From Escherichia coli 042 (GTDB taxonomy: Bacteria > Pseudomonadota > Gammaproteobacteria > Enterobacterales > Enterobacteriaceae): a DNA stretch of 64,000 nucleotides. The position numbers and the translations under genes were made by a program. The stretch lies in the NCBI RefSeq assembly GCF_000027125.1, contig NC_017626.1. One strand, given 5' to 3'. Shown here in pieces: positions 1 through 15,083 of the stretch; within the stretch, counting starts at the first letter, position 1; every line of letters starts with the position of its first letter. The notes beneath the pieces were generated by a model. The model saw only the letters and a list, made by a program, of their open reading frames with translations. It was not told where the DNA came from and searched no databases.

Positions 1-463
1 CAAGAATATCCATAACACCTTTCCGATCTATTCCGGCATCTCTAAATGGTAAACTAATAGTTAAATTTGCATTTTTCGAACTATATCCTTCACGGTAATC
101 TTCGTCTGCTCTTATTGCTACATAGCTTGTAACTTTATCACCAGCATTAAGCATCGGACGAACCCACTGTTCGAAGGGCGCGAGTTTTAACTGACGAGTA
201 CACCAACGAGTCTGCGGCGAGGGTAGAAAATGATTATATTCACGTAACCAGAAATCAAAACCACGTCTAGGGTTTAGTCTGGCAATTGGTTTGCCTAAAA
301 ATCCTTCTAATCGCCCCAAAAACTCATAGACTTCAGGTAATTCTTTACCTGTATCAGTAAAGAAATAGTCGATATCTAACTCGGGGCGTGTCTGGCGCAT
401 GAAAACAGCAAGTGCAGCACTGTCTTTACCCCCAGAAATACCAAGTACATGCTTTTCAGTCAT
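1..463 (-). CDS. PAPS-reductase-family PP-loop protein, N-terminal ~154 codons (gene continues past window start)
   Basis: Minus-strand translation from ATG at 461-463: MTEKHVLGISGGKDSAALAVF...FFTDTGKELPEVYEFL...RWCTRQLK. SGGxDS PP-loop motif and PAPS-reductase-like TDTG region. 2-bp gap after stop of upstream ATPase gene. Confidence 0.7.
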   Translation of the reverse strand, partial: MTEKHVLGISGGKDSAALAVFMRQTRPELDIDYFFTDTGKELPEVYEFLGRLEGFLGKPIARLNPRRGFDFWLREYNHFLPSPQTRWCTRQLKLAPFEQWVRPMLNAGDKVTSYVAIRADEDYREGYSSKNANLTISLPFRDAGIDRKGVMDIL

Positions 464-3400
464 TCTTAACCTCAACATCATGCTGAGCGATTTTAATACA
501 AGCTTTACCTAATGCAGCCATTATAATATCTGGGTTTAATCCTTTTCCAGATAATGTTCTAATTAACTCACCGGCGAGGTTGTCAATCTGATGGTTGAAT
601 TGCTCAGGTATACTGAATTCGTGTTTGAATGTTTTCATTTCTGAACCAGCTCCAATAACCACTGCAAATGCCTCGCTTGATGGTTTTCGTCCTTGGATCG
701 ATACTAATGCTTCGGATTGGCGAAACCGCAGTGCAAAATTGGCTATTTCCATAAGTGCTAAATCAATATCTCGATCATTCCAGTCTCTTGGAGGCTTGTT
801 TGCAGCTAGGCTGAGTATACCTTCTATAGAATAATGACTACCATCGTACGTAGCTAAACGTGTTGAAAAGGCATCTTGCCGAAGTTCGCCAGTGATACCG
901 GATAACGTTTCAGCACGTTTTCGTAGTGTAGATAAGTCATCTTTATTAGCATTCAGAGCTTTTAGCATTCTTGATGCAAATTGGTCTAAGAGTTTGTCAT
1001 AGGCACTCCAAAGTTCTTTTACTGGAGCCTGTAATGCATCAACATAATTTTTCCCACTTTCTACATTTAGAGCCGCGGCTAAATCAATAAATAAAACTTT
1101 ATGAGGATCGCTAGCTTTTAATAGTGTATCTCGTACCTTCTTCGCATTAGATGAAAGTCTCGCCGTCCTTTGTGTCCAATTTGGGAGTCCAACAATCATG
1201 GCAACTAGACTTCTGGCAGCTTCTAACGGTTCAGCTGAATTAGACATGAGACCAATAGAATCAAGAAGTTTACCAATTCCTACTAGAATCTTTTGTTTTT
1301 CATCATCAATTACAATCCACCGCAAGGAAAAACGTTTTTCATCCTGCAAGTATTCATCAATATCTGCATCAGTAAAAGTAGGAATAAATAATCCATCTTT
1401 ATAAATAGCAATATTACTTTTAGATGCCAGAAGGAAGGCCATAAATATTATCGGTATAACACCTTTTTTTAAACCAAATGGAGGTTTAGCCCAAAGGGTA
1501 TGAATATCAGATACTGATATCATTTGATTTTTATTTTTAATGAAATCATGCGTTTTCTTCCAAAGACCATAAAACGACGAATGCTTGTCGCTGACCGCAG
1601 GAAGAAAATGATAATACCCATCATGATGCTTCGCATACAAGCCGGTACGATGGAGAATCGTTTCATATAGGCCGCGTGAGGCAGGATATCCCTCAATTCC
1701 AAGATGGAGTTCACCCTCATTTTCTAGCATTCGATATAACAATTCTTTCCTGGCTTTTACGCTATTGCTGGATAAATTATCACGATTAACTAATTCACTC
1801 CATAACCTTGGAGCTTTGTAGTAAATATTATCTGCAAGAGAGGATGCAATTGATGATAAAGTACCTTTAGGTTCCGCCTGAGCAGAATCTATACACCATT
1901 CCGCAGTCGCTAATGCCTCTGCTAACTGTTCTTCTAATGTTGATTGCGTTGCACTTATCCTTGCTTGGACTTCTCTTCGTGCAACAGCATCACCTTGTAA
2001 TTCATGTCCACGTTTAGTTTGGACTATTTGAAGTGCTAGGAGTTCGGCACCTAAATCTTCTATGCGCAGGTAGTTATGTGGAATCCCGGCAACAATGGGC
2101 CATGGCTTTGAACGAGAAGCATCAGCACAAATTATTTTAGCTTGTTCTTCATTTACATTTCTTTCAGGAAGTGCCAGAAGAAATAATCCAAACTCTCCGT
2201 TACGTGGCTGGAACTCTTCTGAATATTTTTTTACCTCGTTAAGGTGACAAAGTGCAATATTCATCCAGCGAAAAGTACCAGTTTGATGGTAATGCCTTTT
2301 TGCAATTACAGGATAAAGATTAGCAATTTTATTCAGTTGACTAAAATCTGTTCCAAGCATGGTTGCACGTGATTGTGCAACGGCTTGGTCAATATTAAAA
2401 TCACTTCCTTCAAAAACAGACCATGCCCCGGTATGTTTTTTGAATATGATAACACGCCATTTAGAAAGATCTTCGAGTGCGGATCTAATATTTTCAATAG
2501 AAGTATTCAAGAATAATGATTCTAGTATGCTTGTTTCAGCGGTCAATCCTGAACCATCTTTGAAAAGGTCAAGTATTGCAATACATTTAATTAAATCAAT
2601 ATGCAATATATTATCAGATTTTGCCTCCGCACGTTCTACAGCGTCTACCGCTTGTGCCCAACGATGTCCATCATTAGAGGCCAAAATTAATTGTTCAAGA
2701 TTTGCTCTTAAGTAATCGAAATAGTTTGAGGGAAGATACCAAGTAGCCTCTTCAAATGTGGTTAGATTGAGATAGTTTTGAAACCCGAAAGGTTCAGAGG
2801 ACGAGAGAAAACCAAAAGTTGAACGCTCGTTCTGTCCAAACTGACGTTTTGATATAGGTCCTAATAAAGCAGCCATTACCGGGTGTAAAGGCCAACACTT
2901 GGATAATGCATAATCATATTGCTTTCCAACCATTGGGCGTCGATCATAAATAGCATCCGCGACTACTTGCGCTACTTTTTGAGTGTATTTGGGTCTTTTT
3001 TTAACATCTAACGCTTTACCTATAAGTTCAACAACTTCATCACTCCCTGCAACTAAGGGAATATCAGCATAACGGCCTTGGATTTTAGTCCACTCTTCAC
3101 GAGTTTCAAGTCCAAGTCGAACAGCATATTGTCCAAAAGATTGATGTAATATACCTAAGATAATGACTTTACCATTTGTACGTGCTGCAGATTCAGCAAG
3201 CTCTTGGTAAAAATAAATATCATCGCCATTTCCTAAAGCTGATGCTTCAAGGAACTTACCTAGCTCGTCAATGATAAGCAAGGTACCATCTAACTTCGCT
3301 TCATCTGCAGCACTGCATATGTGTTTAATAAGTAATGATGCTGATTTTTTATAATCTTTATCACTACCACAAACATTATTCAGAGTTTGCGAAATTTGTT

Positions 3401-3800
3401 GGATTATGCTACCTCTGCGGCCAATAACTGGAAGTATTAACCATCCTTTTTTAACTTGGAATGCTTTATCAAAATCACTTTGTGAATCGACATTTAACAA
3501 TGACCTTGCTTTTTCACGTAGAGCTTTGTTAGGTGATAATGAACTTGCAAGAACTAACGCTAATGATGATTTCCCACTTCCATACGGACCAGTCCATGTG
3601 AAAGCTCGCTGTTGGCTATTCAGAACCTGCTTGGACATGTTTTCAAGAACGCTTTGTGCCGTGCCATTGCATACATATCCATCAAGCGCATCTTCGCGGC
3701 CAAGATCAGCATCAATACGGATGGAACGTTGGTATTGTCTCGCAATGCGAACCTGTTCTGAAAGAAGGTTTTTATTATGTTTAGTCATAAGCCTTTCCAA
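456..3800 (-). CDS. Large P-loop NTPase (1114 aa), uncharacterised
   Basis: Supplied ORF; Walker A GPYGSGKSS near residue 70 and Walker B-like LLIIDELGKF near residue 175; long C-terminal extension. Overlaps upstream gene by 20 bp. AT-rich codon usage. Confidence 0.6.
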   Translation of the reverse strand: MERLMTKHNKNLLSEQVRIARQYQRSIRIDADLGREDALDGYVCNGTAQSVLENMSKQVLNSQQRAFTWTGPYGSGKSSLALVLASSLSPNKALREKARSLLNVDSQSDFDKAFQVKKGWLILPVIGRRGSIIQQISQTLNNVCGSDKDYKKSASLLIKHICSAADEAKLDGTLLIIDELGKFLEASALGNGDDIYFYQELAESAARTNGKVIILGILHQSFGQYAVRLGLETREEWTKIQGRYADIPLVAGSDEVVELIGKALDVKKRPKYTQKVAQVVADAIYDRRPMVGKQYDYALSKCWPLHPVMAALLGPISKRQFGQNERSTFGFLSSSEPFGFQNYLNLTTFEEATWYLPSNYFDYLRANLEQLILASNDGHRWAQAVDAVERAEAKSDNILHIDLIKCIAILDLFKDGSGLTAETSILESLFLNTSIENIRSALEDLSKWRVIIFKKHTGAWSVFEGSDFNIDQAVAQSRATMLGTDFSQLNKIANLYPVIAKRHYHQTGTFRWMNIALCHLNEVKKYSEEFQPRNGEFGLFLLALPERNVNEEQAKIICADASRSKPWPIVAGIPHNYLRIEDLGAELLALQIVQTKRGHELQGDAVARREVQARISATQSTLEEQLAEALATAEWCIDSAQAEPKGTLSSIASSLADNIYYKAPRLWSELVNRDNLSSNSVKARKELLYRMLENEGELHLGIEGYPASRGLYETILHRTGLYAKHHDGYYHFLPAVSDKHSSFYGLWKKTHDFIKNKNQMISVSDIHTLWAKPPFGLKKGVIPIIFMAFLLASKSNIAIYKDGLFIPTFTDADIDEYLQDEKRFSLRWIVIDDEKQKILVGIGKLLDSIGLMSNSAEPLEAARSLVAMIVGLPNWTQRTARLSSNAKKVRDTLLKASDPHKVLFIDLAAALNVESGKNYVDALQAPVKELWSAYDKLLDQFASRMLKALNANKDDLSTLRKRAETLSGITGELRQDAFSTRLATYDGSHYSIEGILSLAANKPPRDWNDRDIDLALMEIANFALRFRQSEALVSIQGRKPSSEAFAVVIGAGSEMKTFKHEFSIPEQFNHQIDNLAGELIRTLSGKGLNPDIIMAALGKACIKIAQHDVEVKND

Positions 3801-4671
3801 GCATGTTCAATTTAATTACTTCTGTTTCTGATGTTTTACGATGAACCTGGCGTAAACCAGCTGTATCAGTCCATATAAATGAACCTTCAGTTAACTCTTC
3901 TAATGCGAATAATCGTTCTGCAATAGAGTCTTCATCGAGCTTAAATACTCTACCCGGAGAACCGTCCCCATATGCAATTGTTTCGAAGGATAATGAGCTG
4001 AGATTTAGGGCCTTACGCTCCCAATAATCGATCAGAGCATAAGCAAATACACCATCAGACAAAGTAATCTTTGGACCTCGACGAAATGAAAAGTGTCCTT
4101 TTTTTTCTTCAGCTAGTAAACCTAATTCACCAAGCATAGGTTCGGCAAAGTCTTCAGGAGTGGTTCCACTCGACCGCGGTGCATAACTACGCAAACATGT
4201 CTCAATATCTCGAGAAAGTGTCATTGGTGATAGTTTTCTCCCAGGACAACATTGCGTAGCATAGTCAGCTAAAAGAGCCCGGAGGTCTTCTTGTGTAAAA
4301 GATGAAGAAACAACATGGTTAAATAACCAGTACCAAGTTGTCGAGCGTTCTCCTTTTCCTGAAAGCTTCCAATGGCTAAGCCATGCTGTCGAGGGATGCT
4401 CTGAATAAGGATCAAGCCCATGTTCGCTAAATATTTTAATAGCAAATTCTGTAAGTTTGAATTTACCATCCTCTTCTCGCATTACTTCACAGGCGAGTGC
4501 CCAATGCTTGATTGATGCGACCATGTTTTTGCCTACACCAAATTTGGCAATGGCCTCATCATTCGAAAAAACCGATTTGTCAATAGAACCATCCGGCGCT
4601 GCATAACTGCAGGTTTTTTTTAACCACATTTGTCTTAGTGGGAAGGTCTCGTGACCTGAAAAGTGAGCCAT
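3781..4671 (-). CDS. Hypothetical protein (296 aa), first gene of three-gene module; possibly a DUF4007-type protein (from memory, unverified)
   Basis: Supplied ORF MAHFSGHETFPLRQMWLKK...; ATG at 4669-4671; 20-bp overlap with ATPase start suggests translational coupling. Confidence 0.5.
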   Translation of the reverse strand: MAHFSGHETFPLRQMWLKKTCSYAAPDGSIDKSVFSNDEAIAKFGVGKNMVASIKHWALACEVMREEDGKFKLTEFAIKIFSEHGLDPYSEHPSTAWLSHWKLSGKGERSTTWYWLFNHVVSSSFTQEDLRALLADYATQCCPGRKLSPMTLSRDIETCLRSYAPRSSGTTPEDFAEPMLGELGLLAEEKKGHFSFRRGPKITLSDGVFAYALIDYWERKALNLSSLSFETIAYGDGSPGRVFKLDEDSIAERLFALEELTEGSFIWTDTAGLRQVHRKTSETEVIKLNMLGKAYD

Positions 4672-5502
4672 GACTTATCCTAATGCGATAACAACTTTGT
4701 ATAAGCTGATTGTACAGGAACTGGAGAGTTTCACCAGTGGCGGCTTTTGGACATCATTGGGGTGGCGTAGCGGTTTTTTTTTTATTTTTTTCGTTAAAAT
4801 ACATATTGTTAATTGTTTTTTATTGCGGAGGGGAACTGTCTATATCTTCTCATGCATCGGGATTTTTAACAGGCCTGAGCTGGCATGTTCTACCGTTTCA
4901 CACAGAAAGGAACAGTTAGTTTCAAACGGATACTTATCAATCAGTGGTGTGAGAAATGCTAAGAGTGGGAAACGCACTTAATTTTATGATTTCTTAGTGA
5001 CCAGTTTTTAACCATGAGCTAATCTTAAAATCTGATTTTTATCAATGAGTTAATGTTGATGTACTATGCGGCAATGAATGAAGTGTATTGCCATTCCGAA
5101 TTTTTGCTCATTTTTTAGCCATTTCCATACTTTTTTGCGTGAATATTTTATGAACAATGTTCCTTTCATAACTTATCTGTCTCAAATGATACGTTTGGAG
5201 TTTACAATTACTAAATATTTAATGTAAGTGGGAACAGCTATTTTTTGTTCATATTAGCTCCCAGCAGCAAAAGATGATGTAATTCATCCGGTGCAGAGAT
5301 AATATAGGAATGGATAATCTGGAGAGCGACTCTGCAGGCTGATATTGCGGTTTTGCGGCAAGTTTTTGGCATCCGCTTCTACGCCAAATACCTGAAGTAG
5401 GAATGGATGCGTTAGCAGCATACATCCGGATCTGCGCGGGGAATAGCCGGAAACGGCTATCCCTACCACAATAGCTAACTTTGTAATAGTGCCCTTTTAG
5501 GC

Positions 5503-6534
5503 TCATGTACTCTGACGTAATTCTATCTGGTAGTTGAATTGCACGATACGCGACTCTTCTGATTCATCATGATTATTATTCAATAGCCCAATCAGTAACT
5601 TACCCGTCTCTATCCCCATTTTTTTGTAGTCAATACGGATGGATGTCAAGGTTGGGTGTGTTTGATCGCAATTGTCTGAACCATCAAGACAAGCTACAGC
5701 GATATTTTCAGGAATTTTTAACAAACGCCGCTGGCACTCAAACATGATACCCAGCGCAATCTCTTCGTGGCTGCAAATCACAGCATCCAGCTCTGGTTGT
5801 CGCAGTAATATCTCGTTTAATGCGTAACGCCCCAATTGCAGACTTGCGGCATCCGGCATGGTGATAACAAGATCAGAGTTCTGGTAATGGCTCAACATTG
5901 CTTTATGCCAGCCGTTCAGTTGCTGACGTTGCAGGCGGTTGTCCATATGCGCACCGATAAATCCGATATTCTTATAACCCTGTTCCAGCAGATGTTCGGT
6001 CAGTTTATGTGATGCTTCAAAAAATGCTGTTTCGATGGTAATTTGAGCCGGACTGAAAGGGGAACCGACAACGTTAATGGTAGGTATATTTGTTTTCTCG
6101 AGTATCTGGTGAGTTTTATCAGCCAACTGAGAACCAAAAATAACTAACGCCGCCGGGTTGCCTTGAAGAAGCGTCATCAGAATTTCAGCTTCTTTGAGCT
6201 GATTATACTCATGACACCCAAGCAGTAGCTGGAATTCATTTTTATTAAGCACCTGCTGCAACGACTGCATAAAGCGGGAGCTGGCTTTATCTGTCAGGGA
6301 AGGAACCAGTACGGCGACTGTATCACTGTGACCAGATGCAAGGGCGCCAGCAGTTCTGTTGGGAATATAACCCAACTCTTCTACGGCCTGTTCTATCTTT
6401 TCCCTCAGCTTGTCAGATACCTGTTCCGGTGTTCTCAGCGCACGGGAAACGGTCATGGTTCCGACACCTGCAAAGTTAGCGACCTCCTGCAGCGTCACCC
6501 GTCCGGTACCACGGCGCTTACGTGTTTTTTCCAT
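5503..6534 (-). CDS. LacI/GalR-family transcriptional regulator
   Basis: N-terminal HTH VTLQEVANFAGVGTMTVSRAL followed by a periplasmic-binding-protein-like sugar-binding domain; 343 aa; divergent from the PTS genes. Confidence 0.85.
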   Translation of the reverse strand: MEKTRKRRGTGRVTLQEVANFAGVGTMTVSRALRTPEQVSDKLREKIEQAVEELGYIPNRTAGALASGHSDTVAVLVPSLTDKASSRFMQSLQQVLNKNEFQLLLGCHEYNQLKEAEILMTLLQGNPAALVIFGSQLADKTHQILEKTNIPTINVVGSPFSPAQITIETAFFEASHKLTEHLLEQGYKNIGFIGAHMDNRLQRQQLNGWHKAMLSHYQNSDLVITMPDAASLQLGRYALNEILLRQPELDAVICSHEEIALGIMFECQRRLLKIPENIAVACLDGSDNCDQTHPTLTSIRIDYKKMGIETGKLLIGLLNNNHDESEESRIVQFNYQIELRQST

Positions 6535-6804
6535 TTCGACTCCATGGATAATTACAACCAGCTGTTTTCATTACTTTTATTTCACCATTACTCTTTCCAG
6601 TTTTTGCCCACGGTAGCAAATATCCTGTTGCATTGTATATGCAGGAACCGAATATAGCCAAAGCATGGCGGCAGAGAAATGATAGCGCTATCACAAAGAT
6701 TGGTAGCGTTATCAGATAGCGCTATCAAATGCGACAATCATCACATTAATTAATGCGTAAAATATCTACTCTCCTGTTAATTATCATCGGGAGTTATCAG
6801 TAGC

Positions 6805-7248
6805 ATGTTAAAAAATCTATTAAATACAGAGGTCGTTCAGGTCGTGGAACAGGCCAAAGACTGGCGGGAAGCCGTGGCGATTTCATGCCGGCCGTTGATT
6901 GAAAACGGTTCTATCGAACCGCGTTATGTTGATGCGATCTATCGCTCGCACGACACTATCGGTCCGTACTATGTGGTTGGCCCTGGTATTGCGATGCCTC
7001 ATGCGCGCCCGGAAGAGGGAGCTAACAAGCTGTCATTAGCACTGACCCTGATCCCTTCAGGTGTGAATTTTGATGCCGATGAAAACGATCCAGTGAAATT
7101 ACTGATTGTGCTGGCTGCAACCGACAGTACCAGCCACATTGAAGCGATTTCTCAACTCGCCAAGTTATTCGATAACGAAAAAGACATACAGGCCATTTTG
7201 ATGGCCAAAACGACGCAGGACATTTTGTCTGTTATTGCGCGCTATTAA
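6805..7248 (+). CDS. PTS EIIA component, ascorbate (L-Asc) family
   Basis: 147 aa; GIAMPHAR phosphorylation-site-like motif; first gene of EIIA-EIIB-EIIC cluster. Confidence 0.75.
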   Translation: MLKNLLNTEVVQVVEQAKDWREAVAISCRPLIENGSIEPRYVDAIYRSHDTIGPYYVVGPGIAMPHARPEEGANKLSLALTLIPSGVNFDADENDPVKLLIVLAATDSTSHIEAISQLAKLFDNEKDIQAILMAKTTQDILSVIARY

Positions 7249-7263
7249 TCCAGAGGAACATTT

Positions 7264-7551
7264 ATGAAAATTACAGTGGTTTGCGGTAACGGCTTAGGCA
7301 CCAGCCTGATGATGGAAATGAGCATTAAAAGCATTTTGAAGGATTTGTCCGTCAGCGCTGATGTTGATCACGTCGACCTGGGCTCCGCGAAAGGGACGCC
7401 GAGTGATATCTATGTCGGCACCAAAGACATTGCCGAGCAGTTAGTCGCGCAGTCTGTCGCAGGCAAAATCGTCGCACTGGAAAATATGATTGATAAGAAA
7501 GCCATGAGAGAACGTTTATCCGTGGTATTAAACGAATTAGGCGCACTGTAA
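7264..7551 (+). CDS. PTS EIIB component, ascorbate family
   Basis: 95 aa; MKITVVCGNGLGTSLMM with active-site Cys typical of UlaB/SgaB-like EIIB. Confidence 0.8.
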   Translation: MKITVVCGNGLGTSLMMEMSIKSILKDLSVSADVDHVDLGSAKGTPSDIYVGTKDIAEQLVAQSVAGKIVALENMIDKKAMRERLSVVLNELGAL

Positions 7552-7563
7552 GCTGGGGGCGAT

Positions 7564-8820
7564 ATGGATTTCTTTCGTTTTTTGATGAGCGATGTACTTT
7601 CCGAACCCGCAGTGCTGGTCGGTTTAATCGCCCTGATTGGCCTGATTGCACAGAAAAAACCGGTAACCGAATGCATTAAAGGTACCGTCAAGACCATTAT
7701 GGGGTTTGTGATTTTAGGCGCAGGGGCGGGTTTAGTTGTGTCGTCACTGGGTGACTTCGCAAACATTTTCCAGCATGCCTTTGGTATTCAGGGTGTAGTG
7801 CCGAACAATGAAGCCATTGTTTCCGTAGCGCAGAAAAGCTTCGGGAAAGAAATGGCGATGATTATGTTCTTTGCGATGGTTATCAACATTATGATTGCCC
7901 GTTTCACACCGTGGAAATTTATCTTCCTGACCGGTCATCACACGTTGTTTATGTCGATGATGGTAGCGGTAATTCTGTCAACAGCAGGCATGACCGGCAT
8001 TACGCTTATAGCCGTTGGCTCTTTGGTTGTTGGCGTGGCAATGGTCTTTTTCCCGGCTATTGCGCATCCGTACATGAAGAAAGTGACCGGTTCTGATGAC
8101 GTTGCCATCGGCCACTTCTCAACATTATCTTATGTATTGGCTGGTTTCATCGGCAGCAAGTTTGGTAATAAAGAGCACTCGACTGAAGACATGAATGTGC
8201 CGAAAAGTCTGCTGTTCTTGCGCGACACGCCGGTTGCTATCTCTTTTACCATGAGCATAATTTTCCTGGTGACGTGCCTGTTTGCGGGTGCAGATGCGGT
8301 GAAAGAGCTTAGCGGTGGTAAAAACTGGTTCATGTTCTCTATCATGCAATCCATTACCTTCGCAGCTGGCGTGTACATCATTCTGCAGGGTGTGCGCATG
8401 GTGATTGCGGAGATTGTCCCGGCATTCAAAGGTATTTCAGACAAGCTGGTTCCGAATGCCAGACCTGCTCTCGATTGCCCGGTCGTCTTCCCTTACGCAC
8501 CTAACGCTGTACTGGTTGGTTTCCTGAGTAGCTTTGCTGCAGGTTTAATCGGTATGTTCACGTTGTATCTGCTGAACATGATCGTGATTATTCCTGGTGT
8601 GGTGCCGCACTTCTTCGTAGGTGCAGCTGCAGGGGTATTCGGTAATGCAACGGGTGGACGTCGTGGTGCGATTTTGGGTGCCTTCGCTCAAGGCTTGCTT
8701 ATTACCTTCCTGCCAGTATTCTTATTGCCGGTGCTGGGTGATATTGGTTTTGCTAACACCACCTTCAGTGATGCTGACTTTGGCGCACTGGGTATTTTGT
8801 TAGGGATTATCGTTCGCTAA
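7564..8820 (+). CDS. PTS EIIC permease, ascorbate family (UlaA/SgaT-like)
   Basis: 418 aa polytopic membrane protein immediately downstream of EIIA and EIIB. Confidence 0.8.
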   Translation: MDFFRFLMSDVLSEPAVLVGLIALIGLIAQKKPVTECIKGTVKTIMGFVILGAGAGLVVSSLGDFANIFQHAFGIQGVVPNNEAIVSVAQKSFGKEMAMIMFFAMVINIMIARFTPWKFIFLTGHHTLFMSMMVAVILSTAGMTGITLIAVGSLVVGVAMVFFPAIAHPYMKKVTGSDDVAIGHFSTLSYVLAGFIGSKFGNKEHSTEDMNVPKSLLFLRDTPVAISFTMSIIFLVTCLFAGADAVKELSGGKNWFMFSIMQSITFAAGVYIILQGVRMVIAEIVPAFKGISDKLVPNARPALDCPVVFPYAPNAVLVGFLSSFAAGLIGMFTLYLLNMIVIIPGVVPHFFVGAAAGVFGNATGGRRGAILGAFAQGLLITFLPVFLLPVLGDIGFANTTFSDADFGALGILLGIIVR

Positions 8821-8835
8821 TATTTTGATGACATT

Positions 8836-8892
8836 AATATCCTCCAGGATTTCAGGAACGTGGAGGATATTAATTCCTCTTATTTTCTCCAT
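8836..8892 (+). terminator. Rho-independent terminator after PTS EIIC
   Basis: Perfect 13-bp inverted repeat ttaatatcctcca / tggaggatattaa around a 14-nt loop, followed by T-rich run. Confidence 0.55.
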
Positions 8893-9066
8893 TTTTCTTT
8901 CTTCCAGTCAGGACTGCATCCGATTAATCGTAAGCGCTCCGAGAAGTACGTAGCGTAAGGATTATTTTACAGCTGAGAAGTTTCAGTGCAGCAGTTCATG
9001 CACACGGTTCGACGGCTAGTCATTGATCTTCATAATTACCTCGCGTAAAAAACGGGGTAAGGCCGC

Positions 9067-9496
<430 letters not shown>

Positions 9497-9537
9497 TGAC
9501 CAGTTTTTGTTGACCACTACAAATAAATAAAAGAGTT

Positions 9538-9612
9538 GCAGTGCTTGCTCGGTAAGAAAACAATGGAAGTTGAGATCCTCAAAGAAGCTGTGGAGTACAC
9601 CACTCTACAGTA
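9538..9612 (+). pseudogene. IS2-like (IS3 family) orfA C-terminal remnant
   Basis: Translation [22 protein letters not shown] matches C-terminus of IS2 InsC ([24 protein letters not shown]) at 15084-15449. Confidence 0.5.
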
Positions 9613-9741
9613 GTTGCGCAAATTTGGAGTGGACGATAATGTGATCGTCTATAAGGGCAACGCTATCATAGTCTTGTCCTGGCGGGTAAAAAAGCGCGCT
9701 TACCTTAACGATAAGCGCGCCGCTGTTCAGGCCTTGAGTGG

Positions 9742-10755
9742 TTATTCAATTCCTGTGGTGACTGTAAAAGTGCGCGTTTGCTGCGGTGCAACCTGAATCA
9801 GCGTGCCATTACGTTGCGCGGCAAGATACCCCTCAGGCCGACAGGTTGCAGGTAATGCAAAGGCGGCTACCTGTTGCTCTCCGTTATAAAGGATCCAGCG
9901 TGTCACATAATTTAGTTCAGCACTGTAGAAACGAGTAACAAACGTAGTGCCATCGGGAGAGATCATGCGAAACTCTGGCTGATCTGTATAAGCGTCCAGT
10001 TTGTCTGCAAAGAAGACAATTTCTGGATCATAAAATTCCGGTTGACTCAGCGTCGACAGAGAGGCTTCTCCCTGCATAATCCGTTGATTAAACGCCAGCC
10101 ACTGAGCGGTGGGATTAACATGCGAAGGCACTGATTCACGCAATCTTAATATTTCGTCCGGGATATTCTGGCTGAATGTAGCATTTGGTATATATGCATA
10201 ATTCATGTGGCACATATATTGTAGTGGCATATCTACAGAAGCCAGATTGGTTACGGCCATCTTAATATCGAACAGTGTAGAGGATTTGTGAAGGACCACT
10301 GTTGGTTGAGCCAGATAATGATGACCGAAACCCATTACATACTCGTAACGCCCGTTAAGGCGTAACATATCTCCGTCTAATTCCAGCCATGCTTCATCCA
10401 TCGCGGCACAGGCCATTTCACCGTGTAGCAGATGAGTATCTTCCGCAGATGGGCAGCCATTAGCCAGCAAACCTGAATGAAAAGCAAAACAGCCATAGGT
10501 CTCTATCACCTCTGTCGCCGGTTTAGGCTGGCGAAACATATTGCACATGGTGAGGCCGTGTCCATCAAATTGCGCATCCCAAATCATCTGCCCCATCCAG
10601 GGAAGAATAATCAAATGTCCACGACTGTTTGCAATTTTAAGCCCCTCGACACCGCTGTCATAGCGAAAAGACGTGACAGTAAAATCACTATTTTCCAGCA
10701 AGATACGAGGTTTCTCGCCAAAAAGCGCCCGCCACAAATTAATACGCGTACTCAT
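9742..10755 (-). CDS. deoX: DeoX-like protein of the deoK operon (putative deoxyribose mutarotase-type)
   Basis: 337-aa ORF at distal end of kinase-permease operon; assignment by synteny with the deoQKPX operon described in Salmonella and pathogenic E. coli. Confidence 0.5.
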   Translation of the reverse strand: MSTRINLWRALFGEKPRILLENSDFTVTSFRYDSGVEGLKIANSRGHLIILPWMGQMIWDAQFDGHGLTMCNMFRQPKPATEVIETYGCFAFHSGLLANGCPSAEDTHLLHGEMACAAMDEAWLELDGDMLRLNGRYEYVMGFGHHYLAQPTVVLHKSSTLFDIKMAVTNLASVDMPLQYMCHMNYAYIPNATFSQNIPDEILRLRESVPSHVNPTAQWLAFNQRIMQGEASLSTLSQPEFYDPEIVFFADKLDAYTDQPEFRMISPDGTTFVTRFYSAELNYVTRWILYNGEQQVAAFALPATCRPEGYLAAQRNGTLIQVAPQQTRTFTVTTGIE

Positions 10756-10766
10756 AACGGTTCTCC

Positions 10767-12083
10767 TCAGGACGCTGTGACTTCAGCCAGTGCGGTACGT
10801 ACTTTGCTTTCACGCCAGAAGTAGACTCCGACATAGACAAAGCAGAGCATAGAAACCAGGAATGAAAGCTGTAGTGAGTGGAACATATCTGCAATATATC
10901 CCTGAATTGCCGGAACCACCGCGGCACCGACAATAGCCATAACAATGACTGCTCCTGCCATTTCTGTATGTTCGTTATCAACTGTATCCAGTGTTCCTGC
11001 ATAGATCGTCGCCCAGCAAGGGCCAAACAAAACACTTACCAGGACGGCGACATAGACCGCGCTGAAACTTGGAGCCAGTGCAACATATGCCAGGAACAGC
11101 GCCCCTATAACGGAATAGAGAATCAATACTTTTTCCGGATTAAAACGCGTCATAAGGATGTTGGCTATAAACTTGCCAATAAAGAAGCAGGCAAAGCTAT
11201 AGACCATGAAGTTTGAAGCATCACGTTCGTTGATATCGCCCAACTCCAGCGCCAGACGGATGGTAAATGACCATACTGCGACCTGCATACCCACATAAAG
11301 GAACTGCGCCACAATACCGCGACGAAAGCGCGGATTTCTAGCCAGATAGCGCAGCGTATCCATTGCTGACGGGCGTTTATAGTGACTTGTCTGTGCCACT
11401 TTACAGGTTGGGAAGCGGGTTAAAAGGAACAACACCATGACCACAACCAGAATCATAATCATATACTTATACGGTTCAAGGGTGTTCTCTAACATCAGCA
11501 CCTTAAAGTTGTGAATTTGCTCGGCGTTCATTCCGGACATCTGCTTCTCAAGGCTTTCCCCCTCGGAGAAAACCAGATATTTGCCCAATAAAATACCAGA
11601 CGCAGCACCAATCGGATAAAAGGTCTGGCTGATATTGAGCCGCAATGTGGCATAGGCTTTTGGACCGATCATTGAACTGTATGTGTTCGCTGCAGTTTCA
11701 AGGAAACTCAGGCCAATCGCAATCGCAAAAATAGCTGCAAGGAACATAGTGTAGGTTGCCATATGCGAGGCAGGGAAAAAAAGTGTACAACCACCAATAT
11801 ACAGCGTCAGGCCAATTAAAATTGCCACCTTATAACTGGTCTTTTTAATCACAAGGGATGCTGGTATTGCAATTAAAAAATAACCTCCATAAAATGCGCT
11901 CTGCACCAATGCTGAAGCAAAGTTACTTAGCGAAAATACACTTTTGAATTGAGTGATTAATATGTCATTTAATGCAGCTGCGCATCCCCATAGCGGGAAT
12001 AAACACGATAACAAAATAAACTGGAACAAGGGAGTCTTATTCAGATACCCATCAGGCATCTGAATGATGTTTTTATCGTTCAT
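10767..12083 (-). CDS. deoP: MFS sugar permease, FucP-like (deoxyribose permease)
   Basis: 438 aa, ~12 predicted TM segments, L-fucose:H+ symporter-type; between kinase and deoX. Confidence 0.75.
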   Translation of the reverse strand: MNDKNIIQMPDGYLNKTPLFQFILLSCLFPLWGCAAALNDILITQFKSVFSLSNFASALVQSAFYGGYFLIAIPASLVIKKTSYKVAILIGLTLYIGGCTLFFPASHMATYTMFLAAIFAIAIGLSFLETAANTYSSMIGPKAYATLRLNISQTFYPIGAASGILLGKYLVFSEGESLEKQMSGMNAEQIHNFKVLMLENTLEPYKYMIMILVVVMVLFLLTRFPTCKVAQTSHYKRPSAMDTLRYLARNPRFRRGIVAQFLYVGMQVAVWSFTIRLALELGDINERDASNFMVYSFACFFIGKFIANILMTRFNPEKVLILYSVIGALFLAYVALAPSFSAVYVAVLVSVLFGPCWATIYAGTLDTVDNEHTEMAGAVIVMAIVGAAVVPAIQGYIADMFHSLQLSFLVSMLCFVYVGVYFWRESKVRTALAEVTAS

Positions 12084-12110: not shown

Positions 12111-13031
12111 TTATTCGTTTAAGGTTAAAAATTCATTAAATTGTTCAATACTCGGATAAGATGATTGCGTACCTTTCCCTGTGACGCTGAAAGCGGCAAA
12201 GAGAGCGGCTTTTTTCAAAGCGGCTTCAACATCACCGCTTTGAACATAATAATGGGAAAAGCAACCAATAAATGCGTCACCAGCGCCACTAGTATCAACA
12301 GCATTTACTTTGAATGCAGGAACATGGACTTCCTGATCGCGGGTCATCCATAATGCGCCTTTTTCGCTCATGGTAACAATAATATTGTTCAGCCCTTTAT
12401 CAACTAACGAACGTGCGGCCAAACGAATATGATCATAAGTATCAACCGACATACCGGTTAATATTTCCAGTTCTGTTTCATTCGGGATAAAGAAATCACA
12501 TTTGCAGGCATAAGACATATCTAACTCACGCAATGCCGGAGCCGGATTTAATAACACTTCAATACCATTTTTCTTACCAAACTCAATCGCGTGGTAAACT
12601 GTTTCCAGTTGAACTTCCAGTTGTAAAACGATCAATTTGCATTTTTTCAGATCTTCTGCAGCTCGATCGATATCTTCCGGGGAAAGAAATTTATTCGCTC
12701 CCTTAATTATTAATATACTATTGCTCGAGTTGGCATTAACAAAGATCGGTGCAACACCACTGCTGGTACAGGGGACCTTCTCAACATAAGTGGTATTAAT
12801 TCCCCATGATTCAAGATTACGAATAGTATTATCCGCAAAAATATCATCACCTACTTTAGTCAGCATCAGGACTTTTGAATTCAATTTAGCCGCCGCCACC
12901 GCTTGATTAGCACCTTTCCCACCACATCCGATTTTGAAGGCAGGTGCTTCCAGAGTTTCTCCTTCTTTAGGCATCTGATTAGTGTAAGTAATGAGATCCA
13001 CCATATTGGAACCAATAACTGCAATGTCCAT
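12111..13031 (-). CDS. deoK: Deoxyribokinase (ribokinase/PfkB family)
   Basis: MDIAVIGSNMVDL...GGKGANQAVAAAKL...DTSGAGDAF ribokinase signatures. Start placed at ATG 13029-13031 with GAGGT SD upstream (supplied ORF begins 27 bp earlier). Confidence 0.8.
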   Translation of the reverse strand: MDIAVIGSNMVDLITYTNQMPKEGETLEAPAFKIGCGGKGANQAVAAAKLNSKVLMLTKVGDDIFADNTIRNLESWGINTTYVEKVPCTSSGVAPIFVNANSSNSILIIKGANKFLSPEDIDRAAEDLKKCKLIVLQLEVQLETVYHAIEFGKKNGIEVLLNPAPALRELDMSYACKCDFFIPNETELEILTGMSVDTYDHIRLAARSLVDKGLNNIIVTMSEKGALWMTRDQEVHVPAFKVNAVDTSGAGDAFIGCFSHYYVQSGDVEAALKKAALFAAFSVTGKGTQSSYPSIEQFNEFLTLNE

Positions 13032-13333
13032 TTCACTACCTCTTATAAACTTTCGCATAACAATGGTATTTAAATAACATTAGCATGTTACTTTTGCATC
13101 ATTTGTGACTGAGATCGCGATTAGCACATCAACCCGATGTTTATTTAATAGACTTCCAGTCTCATCACTCAGGCCAACACTATCTAATCATAAGCAACCT
13201 AACAAGATTAGTGCCCAAAACTCAGCAGCCTATACCCTTTTCATTTCAAAGGGGCGGTCGTATAGTATGGTAATGAAAACAATGTTTACTAACGCCAAAA
13301 TGTTATTTTTATAACATTCTTACGGAGAGAGAG

Positions 13334-14119
13334 TTGATGGAAACGAAGCAAAAAGAGCGTATCCGACGTTTGATGGAACTGCTTAAGAAAACCGACAGAA
13401 TCCATTTGAAAGACGCAGCGCGAATGCTGGAAGTTTCTGTAATGACTATTCGTCGCGATCTCCATCAGGAAGATGAACCTCTGCCACTGACCCTACTGGG
13501 TGGCTATATTGTAATGGTGAATAAACCCGCGCCATCCATGCCAGTAATCCATGACGTTCCAAAAAATCATCGTGATGACTTACCTATTGCAATTCTGGCT
13601 GCCGGAATGGTTAATGAAAATGATCTGATCTTCTTTGATAATGGCCAGGAGATACCACTCGTTATAAGCATGATCCCGGATGCAATCACCTTCACCGGCA
13701 TCTGTTACTCACATCGCGTCTTTGTTGCGTTGAATGAAAAGCCTAATGTAACAGCAATACTTTGTGGTGGTACGTATCGTGCCAGAAGTGATGCTTTTTA
13801 CGATGCCAGTAACTCTTCGCCATTAGACTCTCTCAATCCGCGAAAAATATTTATTTCCGCCAGCGGTGTGCATAATCACTTTGGCGTCAGCTGGTTTAAC
13901 CCTGAAGATCTTGCCACTAAGCGTAAAGCGATGAACCGTGGACTACGGAAAATTTTGCTCGCCCGCCACGCGTTGTTCGATGAAGTGGCCTCTGCCAGCC
14001 TCGCACCGATCTCTGCATTTGACGTTCTGATTAGCGATCGTCCGTTACCGGCAGATTATGTTACGCACTGCCAGAATGGTTCTGTAAAGATCATTACACC
14101 TGATTCAGAAGACGAATGA
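13334..14119 (+). CDS. deoQ: DeoR-family transcriptional regulator
   Basis: N-terminal HTH ERIRRLMELLKKTDRIHLKDAARMLEVSVMTIRRDL and DeoR-type C-terminal domain; divergent from deoK. Confidence 0.8.
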   Translation: MMETKQKERIRRLMELLKKTDRIHLKDAARMLEVSVMTIRRDLHQEDEPLPLTLLGGYIVMVNKPAPSMPVIHDVPKNHRDDLPIAILAAGMVNENDLIFFDNGQEIPLVISMIPDAITFTGICYSHRVFVALNEKPNVTAILCGGTYRARSDAFYDASNSSPLDSLNPRKIFISASGVHNHFGVSWFNPEDLATKRKAMNRGLRKILLARHALFDEVASASLAPISAFDVLISDRPLPADYVTHCQNGSVKIITPDSEDE

Positions 14120-15083
14120 CTTACTGAAAAAACACCACAATCTTGTTAAACATCGTCGGGTTGGACTGATTACGTTGCACTTTCACCACATATTCCAGCT
14201 TATCTATTTGGCTTATCACCTACTCCAGACGCTGGCCATCCTTGACCAGTAGCCAGATATGGCTTTTGTCGCAGTCCTGAATCGGCAGGCAGAGAATGTC
14301 TTCAACGTTAAGAGCGCGACGGGCAAAAGCCCACAAAGGTGAGTCATTACACCCGGATGGTAAACAGGCACTTCCTTGTTGTAGAAGCCGTTATATTGTC
14401 CATAATGTCTGGGTTTTTAATGCATACTGGGTAACAACCGGACGAATCTTCGAATATCACTGGCGCTGCCAGCCGGTTTGAATTCATCTCACAACCCTGC
14501 ATAGAGCGAATCTCCTGCCTGCACGTCACTCCACTCCATGGTATCAACTTCACACTCTTTATCTGCGGCTAGCTTCAGCCACCAGATAAGCATCGACTAT
14601 GAAAGATGAGCCATGACAACATAACGTTGGTAACGCTCTGACGCCTTAATGGAAGATGCCTGCCACCATAGGGAATGTAAACGACTGAAGTGTGGCCTTT
14701 AATGCCGTGAACGGCTCATGGTCTCCTGGCACGGTTGCCGCCCCAACCTGTAACAACATTCCACAGTACAATGTCTGTCAGAGTCAGAGCCTCCCATGCT
14801 TGTTGTAGTAACTCTACCAGTTACGAACATCCTTCCTCAAAATTGTTGTCATATCTCGCATGGAAGAAAAGATCCTGGCTAAGGAGCAACACACAACGTA
14901 TTGCGGAACTTGCATATTTTTCCTGTAACTAGTGTATTACCACATATGGTAATAGCTACCTGTGTGGTTTCGCTGGATAGCAAGGGGATTTATAGACTGG
15001 CCCCCTGAATCTCCAGACAACCAATATCACTTAAATAAGTGATAGTCTTAATACTAGTTTTTAGACTAGTCATTGGAGAGCAG

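Follow-up and report, generated by a model that had tools for sequence, protein, structure and literature searches.

In extraintestinal pathogenic Escherichia coli, the vpe operon has been published as a determinant of fitness and virulence. It encodes a LacI-family regulator, VpeR, and the EIIA, EIIB and EIIC proteins (VpeA, VpeB and VpeC) of a sugar phosphotransferase system (PTS). Martinez-Jehanne et al. (Infect Immun 2012;80:2655) described the operon in uropathogenic E. coli AL511. According to citing papers, vpe mutants form a smaller amount of capsule-like material, show attenuation in models of sepsis and pyelonephritis, and colonize the gut more weakly. In three papers, a PTS operon named ‘vpe’ directly adjoins deoK in islands of E. 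coli. In the published table of the LAC pathogenicity island (PAI), whose copy lies at pheV, open reading frames (ORFs) 34–37 are VpeR (343 amino acids, LacI family), VpeA (147 amino acids), VpeB (95 amino acids) and VpeC (1257 bp), ORF 38 is a transposase fragment, and ORFs 39–42 are DeoM, DeoP, DeoK and DeoQ.

Two other described systems lie close to vpe, one by homology and one by position. UlaABC (SgaTBA; structures 4RP8/4RP9 and 5ZOV), the L-ascorbate PTS of E. coli, which goes with ulaG/ulaDEF and UlaR, shares with Vpe the three-protein enzyme II (EII) architecture and the EIIC fold family. UlaA has 465 amino acids, whereas VpeC has 418; UlaR is a DeoR-type regulator, whereas VpeR is LacI-type; and no ula enzymes are encoded beside vpe. 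The deoK operon (deoQKPX; Bernier-Febreau et al. 2004) is, like vpe, a horizontally acquired carbohydrate module tied to colonization and found in the same islands. Unlike vpe, it has an independent origin and a permease of the major facilitator superfamily (MFS), and it is not found beside vpe outside E. coli.

We analyzed a stretch of 64,000 nucleotides from E. coli 042 (contig NC_017626.1 of RefSeq assembly GCF_000027125.1; hereafter the window), in which the PTS cassette under study occupies positions 5503–8892. According to the ORF list and a Pfam search, vpeR (5503–6534, minus strand) is divergent from vpeA-vpeB-vpeC and encodes a 343-residue repressor with a LacI helix-turn-helix domain (PF00356) and Peripla_BP_1/3 domains (PF00532, PF13377). 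On the plus strand, vpeA (6805–7248) encodes a 147-residue EIIA of the PTS_EIIA_2 family (PF00359, 125 bits) with a GIAMPHA motif, vpeB (7264–7551) a 95-residue EIIB of the PTS_IIB family (PF02302) with Cys7 in VVCGNGLGTS, and vpeC (7564–8820) a 418-residue EIIC of the L-ascorbate (L-Asc)/EIIC-GAT family (PF03611, 501 bits). Cys7 of VpeB and the histidine of GIAMPHA in VpeA are the presumed catalytic phospho-sites of these families. An earlier reading of the same DNA, made from its letters alone (the sequence-only reading), had placed a LacI-family regulator and EIIA-EIIB-EIIC genes at these positions, and the ORFs and domains agree with it.

This locus is the published vpe operon and so was already known. 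The gene order and the protein sizes of 343, 147, 95 and 418 amino acids equal those in the LAC PAI table, and VpeA of the window is identical to the printed LAC PAI protein at 144 of 147 positions. Interval 5000–9700 of the window is 100% identical to the corresponding region of strain CV839-06 and several further strains (identity to the best-matching genome was verified for this interval only), and CV839-06 carries the same DeoM and DeoK accessions, WP_000107474.1 and WP_000350265.1, as the LAC PAI table. Gene order, protein sizes, near-identical sequence, the deoK neighbor and the type of island are thus all shared with the published operon, with no structural difference. The copy described here differs in location, lying in a leuX (tRNA-Leu) island beside an SspBCD module. 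To the published picture we add the autonomy of the cassette across genera, the architecture of its operators and CRP-like site, a pocket signature in VpeC and a sister clade linked to the pentose-phosphate pathway. Together, these results make the substrate question directly testable through candidate sugars, the operator and structure 3D8U.

The cassette across genera

The sequence-only reading had described an orphan PTS and offered two explanations: either its catabolic part was deleted by insertion sequence (IS) activity, or the permease feeds a pathway encoded elsewhere. Comparison with related genomes decides between them. We scanned one genome per species, which gave 80 species-representative loci, and added 10 look-up loci for a total of 90 related loci, two of which are duplicates. 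Nineteen genus labels are represented among these loci, such as Buttiauxella, Yersinia, Providencia, Proteus, Edwardsiella, Photorhabdus, Xenorhabdus, Vibrio, Photobacterium, Grimontia and Aeromonas. Across the 80 species representatives, VpeC is 84–98% identical to the E. coli protein, and vpeA and vpeB precede vpeC in 79, the exception being Yersinia pestis. The divergent vpeR lies upstream except in Y. pestis, five Xenorhabdus species and Ca. Fukatsuia. In Y. pestis NCTC5923 (locus L036) vpeC alone was detected, while other Yersinia carry the full cassette between pta and yfcD; the Y. pestis locus is possibly a case of lineage-specific decay.

The surroundings of this unit vary by lineage. 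Forty-three distinct flank pairs occur among the 80 species representatives, with the flanking ORFs clustering by lineage, and most of these loci are without IS elements. In Yersinia and Brenneria the cassette sits between pta and yfcD-yfcE; in Proteus it is beside yfcD, with pta a few kilobases off in some species; in Buttiauxella, Dryocola and Enterobacter sp. it lies between yieH and phoU-pstB; and in Photorhabdus it is flanked by LuxR-solo genes. Genes for HAD hydrolases and NUDIX proteins beside the cassette in several genera were considered as functional partners and rejected, as they correspond to yieH, phnX-like genes and yfcD, which are conserved chromosomal neighbors of the different insertion sites. 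Look-ups in seven close-relative taxa (Dryocola, Brenneria, Photorhabdus, Vibrio, Proteus, ‘Klebsiella sp.’ and Citrobacter sp.) gave a regulator with EIIA-EIIB-EIIC in unrelated surroundings, and no catabolic neighbors were seen in their contexts.

No sugar-catabolic neighbor recurs among the 80 species representatives either. The gene after vpeC is convergent in 61 of them, and the same-strand downstream genes, found in 17 species, encode an alanine racemase, GGDEF, GT9, AIR-synthase-like and DUF4955 proteins, none of them common across genera. The only carbohydrate-active-looking downstream neighbor that we saw is in Photobacterium sanctipauli (L056, 9430–11205), where a 591-amino acid DUF4955 protein encoded on the same strand, 176 bp past vpeC, has a weak pectate-lyase-like match below the Pfam cut-off.

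The borders of the unit are equally consistent. A blastn comparison of the window with Buttiauxella gives 84–88% nucleotide identity from 5491–5503 to 8819–8827, that is, from the stop codon of vpeR to that of vpeC. In 69 of the 90 related loci, a hairpin of −8 kcal/mol or lower stands beside a T-rich tail no more than 120 nt from the vpeC stop, although the genera compared have no terminator sequence in common. Related genomes therefore carry the same three-gene PTS, ending at vpeC and without adjacent catabolic genes, which means that the cassette is autonomous by origin and not truncated. Deletion by IS activity does not hold as an explanation, and a permease feeding a pathway encoded elsewhere is the option that survives. 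Its EIIC is extremely conserved, at 84–98% identity from Aeromonas to E. coli, and the cassette as a whole is ancient and autonomous; it is a real and ordinary feature and not the product of IS-mediated decay.

We consider it very probable that vpe is a horizontally mobile four-gene module, sufficient in itself for taking up and phosphorylating one carbohydrate. In the mechanism that we propose, VpeC, an elevator-type EIIC of the L-ascorbate/galactitol superfamily, would bind the sugar, and phosphate would pass from phosphoenolpyruvate through EI and HPr to VpeA (histidine), VpeB (Cys7) and the substrate. The module would be complete in its present form and would never have included catabolic genes, its phosphorylated product being consumed by enzymes encoded elsewhere, and in Enterobacterales the housekeeping tal, tkt, rpe and gmhA genes may suffice to handle that product. 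E. coli would have gained exactly these four genes by horizontal transfer, after which IS elements may have stitched the module beside the deoK operon, an independent acquisition, within pathogenicity islands at tRNA genes.

Regulation of vpeABC

Three putative operators precede vpeA. O1 (6680–6693), 125 nt ahead of the vpeA ATG, is a perfect palindrome, TGATAGCGCTATCA; O2 (6701–6714, TGGTAGCGTTATCA) and O3 (6714–6727, AGATAGCGCTATCA) lie at −104 and −91. In the whole window these are the only matches to TGATAGCGCTATCA with at most two mismatches. A candidate CRP-like site, TGCGAcaatcaTCACA (6730–6745), which resembles the CRP consensus, adjoins O3 on its downstream side. The arrangement is conserved: every related locus with vpeR has two or three palindromes ahead of vpeA. 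Where there are three, they mostly lie at −125/−104/−91; the remaining loci have shifted positions or two sites. The CRP-like half-sites, TG(a/t/c)GA-N6-TCACA, align across the Enterobacterales and Aeromonas loci, and Vibrio and Photobacterium have a degenerate right half-site.

The palindromes are absent from the five Xenorhabdus loci (L078, L084, L085, L087 and L088) and from Ca. Fukatsuia (L082), in which vpeR was not detected. These loci keep vpeABC, which suggests that the genes are constitutive or differently regulated in these insect-associated bacteria.

VpeR has the architecture of the LacI/GalR family, an N-terminal helix-turn-helix followed by a periplasmic-binding-protein-like effector domain, and its putative operator is, as is likewise typical of this family, a palindrome with a central CG near the regulated promoter, missing where vpeR is not detected; binding of VpeR to these sites is a prediction. 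The operators and the CRP-like site are arranged in the way that is standard for an uptake operon under catabolite control and induced by its substrate, with VpeR as the presumptive ligand of the palindromes. VpeR would repress vpeABC through the three TGATAGCGCTATCA-type operators just upstream of the CRP-like site and the core promoter, and an effector would release it from them. A full-text literature search with the operator sequence gave no relevant match.

The effector domain of a VpeR ortholog already has a solved structure. PDB entry 3D8U is that domain from the Vibrio parahaemolyticus protein (L008, 6915–7943), essentially identical over 274 residues. It was deposited as a ‘PurR transcriptional regulator’, a name that is misleading.

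Substrate of the Vpe transporter

VpeC aligns with E. coli UlaA (structure 4RP8) at 31% identity over 390 residues (E = 2e-50), and with a PF03611 EIIC, a separate PF02302 EIIB and a PF00359 EIIA, the system has the composition of the PTS L-Asc family (TC 4.A.7). The residues of UlaA that contact vitamin C, and those with mechanistic roles, have been listed (PMC6048161), and mutation of Gln139, Gln195 or Tyr87 impairs binding (PMC6048161). UlaA residues G58, G286, R288, H135, H194, D314 and F362 are kept in VpeC, and I358 is replaced by V. The elevator pivot glycines and the arginine at the EIIB interface (VpeC G54, G276 and R278) show no variation among the 90 related loci. The UlaA contacts T86, Y87, H135, I136, Q139, H194, Q195, D314, I358 and F362 correspond to N, E, H, H, F, H, F, D, V and F in VpeC; Met410 is outside the alignment. 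Five of these 10 contacts differ non-conservatively (T86N, Y87E, I136H, Q139F and Q195F), and all 14 mapped positions are invariant in the 90 loci.

The pocket signature recurs outside the vpe cassettes. In an exhaustive profile search of 50%-identity cluster representatives, the best full-length matches to VpeC outside its own 84–100% group were at most 53% identical, and the ten-residue signature NEHH[F/Y]HFD[V/I]F was found in relatives at 30–53% identity. One of these operons (P0122) consists of a regulator with PTS regulation domains (PRD-type), EIIB, EIIC and a transaldolase (TIGR02134, above the cut-off); a second (P0121) has a PRD regulator, a GmhA-like SIS_2 protein, EIIB, EIIC, a transketolase and a second GmhA-like protein; a third (P0123) is EIIA-EIIB-EIIC alone. 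P0121 and P0122, at 48–53% identity the best full-length matches to VpeC outside its own group, share the pocket signature and the EIIB-EIIC core with Vpe. These PRD-regulated L-Asc operons and their relatives differ from Vpe in having a PRD/EIIA-type activator and a co-encoded transaldolase, transketolase, PfkB kinase, aldolase or GmhA-like protein, none of which is part of the cassette of Enterobacterales and Vibrio.

A metagenome scan with an alignment of the same-signature proteins added a further 80 loci, and the signature is present in all 83 full-length EIICs. After dereplication at 90% identity to 44 lineages, we counted the same-strand neighbors within 4 kb. A transaldolase accompanies the transporter in 18 of the 44 lineages, a transketolase (split or full) in eight, a PfkB kinase in five (two of them also with a class II aldolase), Rpe in one, and two GmhA-like isomerases with a transketolase in one. 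Among the 20 lineages with complete flanks, just two lack any such enzyme.

All of these enzymes use ketose phosphates from the non-oxidative branch of the pentose-phosphate pathway, and sedoheptulose-7-phosphate is the sole metabolite used by transaldolase, transketolase, the kinase-plus-aldolase bypass and GmhA alike. From the company that same-pocket transporters keep, Vpe probably imports a ketose and phosphorylates it to an intermediate of this pathway or to a compound one step away from one. Sedoheptulose-7-phosphate would fit all the enzyme partners and is a possible product, while xylulose 5-phosphate, ribulose 5-phosphate, erythrose 4-phosphate or fructose 6-phosphate would fit some of them. 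Vpe-type EIIs, as defined by the invariant pocket residues N82-E83-H125-H126-F129-H184-F185-D304, might then form a distinct and widespread specificity class within the L-Asc family, importing a ketose that becomes a substrate of the non-oxidative pathway, likeliest a heptulose such as sedoheptulose entering as sedoheptulose-7-phosphate; we put this forward tentatively, as a proposal that may well prove wrong. The core genes of gamma-proteobacteria include tal, tkt, rpe and gmhA, which would make linked enzymes needless and thereby give the gamma-proteobacterial cassette its orphan appearance. If true, the heptulose proposal explains why Firmicute-type relatives carry their own transaldolase, transketolase, PfkB (with or without aldolase) or GmhA-like genes, and it could tie the reported effects of vpe mutations on capsule and virulence to how heptose or pentose-phosphate precursors are supplied in the host. 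A literature search for a sedoheptulose PTS returned no match, nor did a poorly targeted one for sedoheptulosan phenotypes, and a paper on phenotypes of enteroaggregative E. coli 042 held no relevant text.

Several points limit this reading. The substrate is read only from the gene neighborhoods of a sister clade, which shares about 50% identity with VpeC and has a different, PRD-type, regulator. The sister-clade contigs are metagenomic, the pocket positions come from UlaA by way of an alignment at 31% identity, and the ORFs in related loci come from a simple longest-ORF heuristic. In addition, the nearest characterized relatives of VpeR are the sugar-acid repressors GntR and IdnR (PDB 3H5O), a kinship that points to a sugar acid instead of a neutral ketose.

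The sugar acid is the strongest of the other candidates. Here the transporter would import gluconate, 2- or 5-ketogluconate or an idonate-like compound, and a product such as 6-phosphogluconate would enter the Entner-Doudoroff or oxidative pentose-phosphate pathways, so that it likewise needs no dedicated enzyme. The best NCBIfam models for VpeR are the Pseudomonas-type GntR (279 bits), followed by IdnR and E. coli GntR, and its second-best solved relative is a GntR, 3H5O; the GntR/IdnR branch shares with VpeR the domain architecture and an operator that is a palindrome with CG at its center and TAGCGCTA as its core. The prototype of the transporter family, ascorbate, is itself a sugar-acid lactone. 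Yet every one of these regulator matches falls far under its equivalog cut-off (279 against 400, 208 against 500 and 175 against 433 bits), and the pocket gains a glutamate (E83) and two phenylalanines, which is unfavorable for an anion. The relatives with the same signature adjoin transaldolase, transketolase or PfkB, and no gnd/edd/eda-like cluster is found among the recurrent neighbor clusters. We therefore judge a sugar acid to be improbable.

A second PTS for L-ascorbate, isoascorbate or dehydroascorbate, feeding the core ulaG and ulaDEF enzymes encoded elsewhere in the genome, is a little less probable again. It has the database names on its side: the RefSeq name of the protein is ‘PTS ascorbate transporter subunit IIC’, and the gene symbol ulaA appears in some records. 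VpeC does belong to the fold family of UlaA, and the ula regulon is part of the E. coli core genome. Nevertheless, at 592 bits VpeC is below the cut-off of 890 for the UlaA equivalog NF009549 and passes only the broader NF006919 and NF009553, which bear the ‘ascorbate’ name; with the contact residues not conserved, the ascorbate label looks like an over-annotation via the broad model NF006919. The regulator is LacI-type and not UlaR, and ulaG/ulaDEF and a DeoR-type UlaR gene are missing both beside vpe in E. coli and from the recurrent neighbors of the 90 related loci; the sister-clade operons hold transaldolase or transketolase and not ulaD, ulaE or ulaF. Because five of the ten vitamin-C contacts are replaced, among them Gln139, Gln195 and Tyr87, the pocket comparison indicates that the substrate is probably not L-ascorbate. 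The term ‘ascorbate-type’ in the sequence-only reading is thus right for the family, but it does not extend to the ascorbate-specific residues or the equivalog score.

It is very unlikely that the EII complex acts mainly as a sensor or regulator, for example of capsule expression, and not as a nutritional transporter. The reduced capsule-like material and attenuated virulence of a vpe mutant, as reported in a citing paper, would suit such a role; the dedicated repressor and the conserved CRP-like site are, however, a classic catabolic-operon layout, VpeC is extremely conserved including its pocket, and the sister clade is wired to enzymes of carbon metabolism.

Insertion sequences and the island around vpe

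Downstream of vpeC lies a terminator-like hairpin (8834–8874, plus strand) with a stem of 13–14 bp and a T-rich tail reaching about position 8900. It folds at −21.3 kcal/mol (z = −2.76), and one of 200 shuffled sequences folds equally well. The sequence-only reading had seen a clean terminator here; the hairpin and the T-rich run are present, but the U-tract is interrupted, which makes ‘clean’ slightly generous. The IS66-family and IS2-like scars that it had seen after the PTS genes were also found, with an IS911-like piece between them. The IS66-family remnant (8930–9407) is internally deleted and keeps both terminal inverted repeats, GTAAGCGCTCC... and ...GGTTTACGCATAC (GTAAGCG... type), a type that we checked on the intact IS66-family copy of strain 48. 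Within it, a tnpA fragment (9067–9321, minus strand) matches the NCBIfam IS66 TnpA model at E = 7e-18. The two IS3-family pieces follow, an IS911-like fragment at 9412–9521 and an IS2-like fragment at 9527–9598. With both inverted repeats around an internal deletion, the IS66 scar resembles a miniature inverted-repeat transposable element, and in other strains it is the target of later intact IS66/ISEc23 insertions. The copy in strain 48 sits inside this same scar with a target duplication, and the overlaps of ISEc23/IS66 insertions at 9149–9157 and 9501–9509 look like target duplications.

Within E. coli, the full vpe cluster is found in 935 of 5426 complete genomes; 932 genomes cover at least 80% of window interval 5000–9700 and so have the same flanks, and the junction to deoX is common to 800. 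About 400 further genomes hold only the 3′ 950 bp of vpeC (window 7943–8892) beside an intact deoK operon, and in these vpe is inactivated by truncation; an example is genome L093 (Ecol_542), at 8003–8878. In strain 48, vpe is followed by the intact IS66 element and has no adjacent deoK. IS activity at the site is real, and it degrades or reshuffles the module; it did not create the orphan state. That downstream catabolic genes were once present and then deleted in E. coli by IS66- or IS3-family activity is extremely unlikely: the first IS remnant begins only 110 bp past the vpeC stop, and the truncated copies and secondary IS66 insertions testify to activity at the locus, but the four-gene unit lacks catabolic neighbors in 80 species representatives and 43 contexts, mostly without IS elements, homology to the nearest relatives stops at the stop codons, and in most genera vpeC is followed by a hairpin and T-rich tail.

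The deoxyribose operon deoX-deoP-deoK/deoQ begins 920 bp downstream of vpe, with deoX/deoM (9742–10755), deoP (10767–12083) and deoK (12111–13058) on the minus strand and deoQ (13334–14119) on the plus strand. It has its own permease, an MFS protein and not a PTS, and its own regulator. At the near edge of this block is a fragment (9608–9745) resembling the uhpA 3′ end and ilvN junction, 86% identical to the core uhpA-ilvN junction, and at the far end, past deoQ, an ilvN pseudogene is annotated at about 14120–14350. Because uhpA/ilvN-type flanks bracket the deoK block, its origin is independent of vpe; the operon is a separately acquired block, a neighbor and not a part of vpe. The flanks fit capture from the uhpA-ilvN chromosomal site of another species. 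The sequence-only reading's statement that there are no catabolic genes holds beside the PTS, although a catabolic operon, this independent one, does lie beyond the scars.

Cooperation of the two operons, in which Vpe would import a deoxyribose-related compound for DeoK and DeoX, has hardly any likelihood: they are adjacent in most E. coli with a full vpe cluster, and both are reported to promote gut colonization, but three IS remnants and the uhpA-like fragment between them mark separate acquisitions, none of the 90 loci from outside E. coli has deoK genes, the deoK operon brings its own permease and regulator, and each operon occurs without an intact partner beside it, vpe in strain 48 and deoK in the roughly 400 genomes with a truncated vpeC.

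On the other side, the left edge of the vpe block is marked by IS fragments at 5268–5412 (an IS110-family remnant and another, according to the RefSeq annotation of CV839-06), which are homologous to IS pseudogenes upstream of vpeR in strain 48. In the strains identical to the window over 5000–9700, the region belongs to a mosaic island at tRNA-Leu (leuX), beside ahr and with an integrase. Directly upstream of vpeR, on the minus strand of window positions 1–4671, is an SspBCD DNA-phosphorothioation defense module made up of SspD (2–463, cut by the window start), SspC (456–3800, 1451 bits) and SspB/DUF4007 (3781–4671, 381 bits). In the matching genome, a ‘sensor histidine kinase’ gene and a hypothetical gene lie beyond sspD, outside the window, and could be its effector part. 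The rest of the island, from about 14.3 to 64 kb, is a mosaic by the annotation of the best-matching genome, with many IS66, IS3, IS21 and IS1 copies, a BCCT transporter, shf-capU-virK-lpxM-like genes, the fecIRABCDE ferric citrate system and Ag43.

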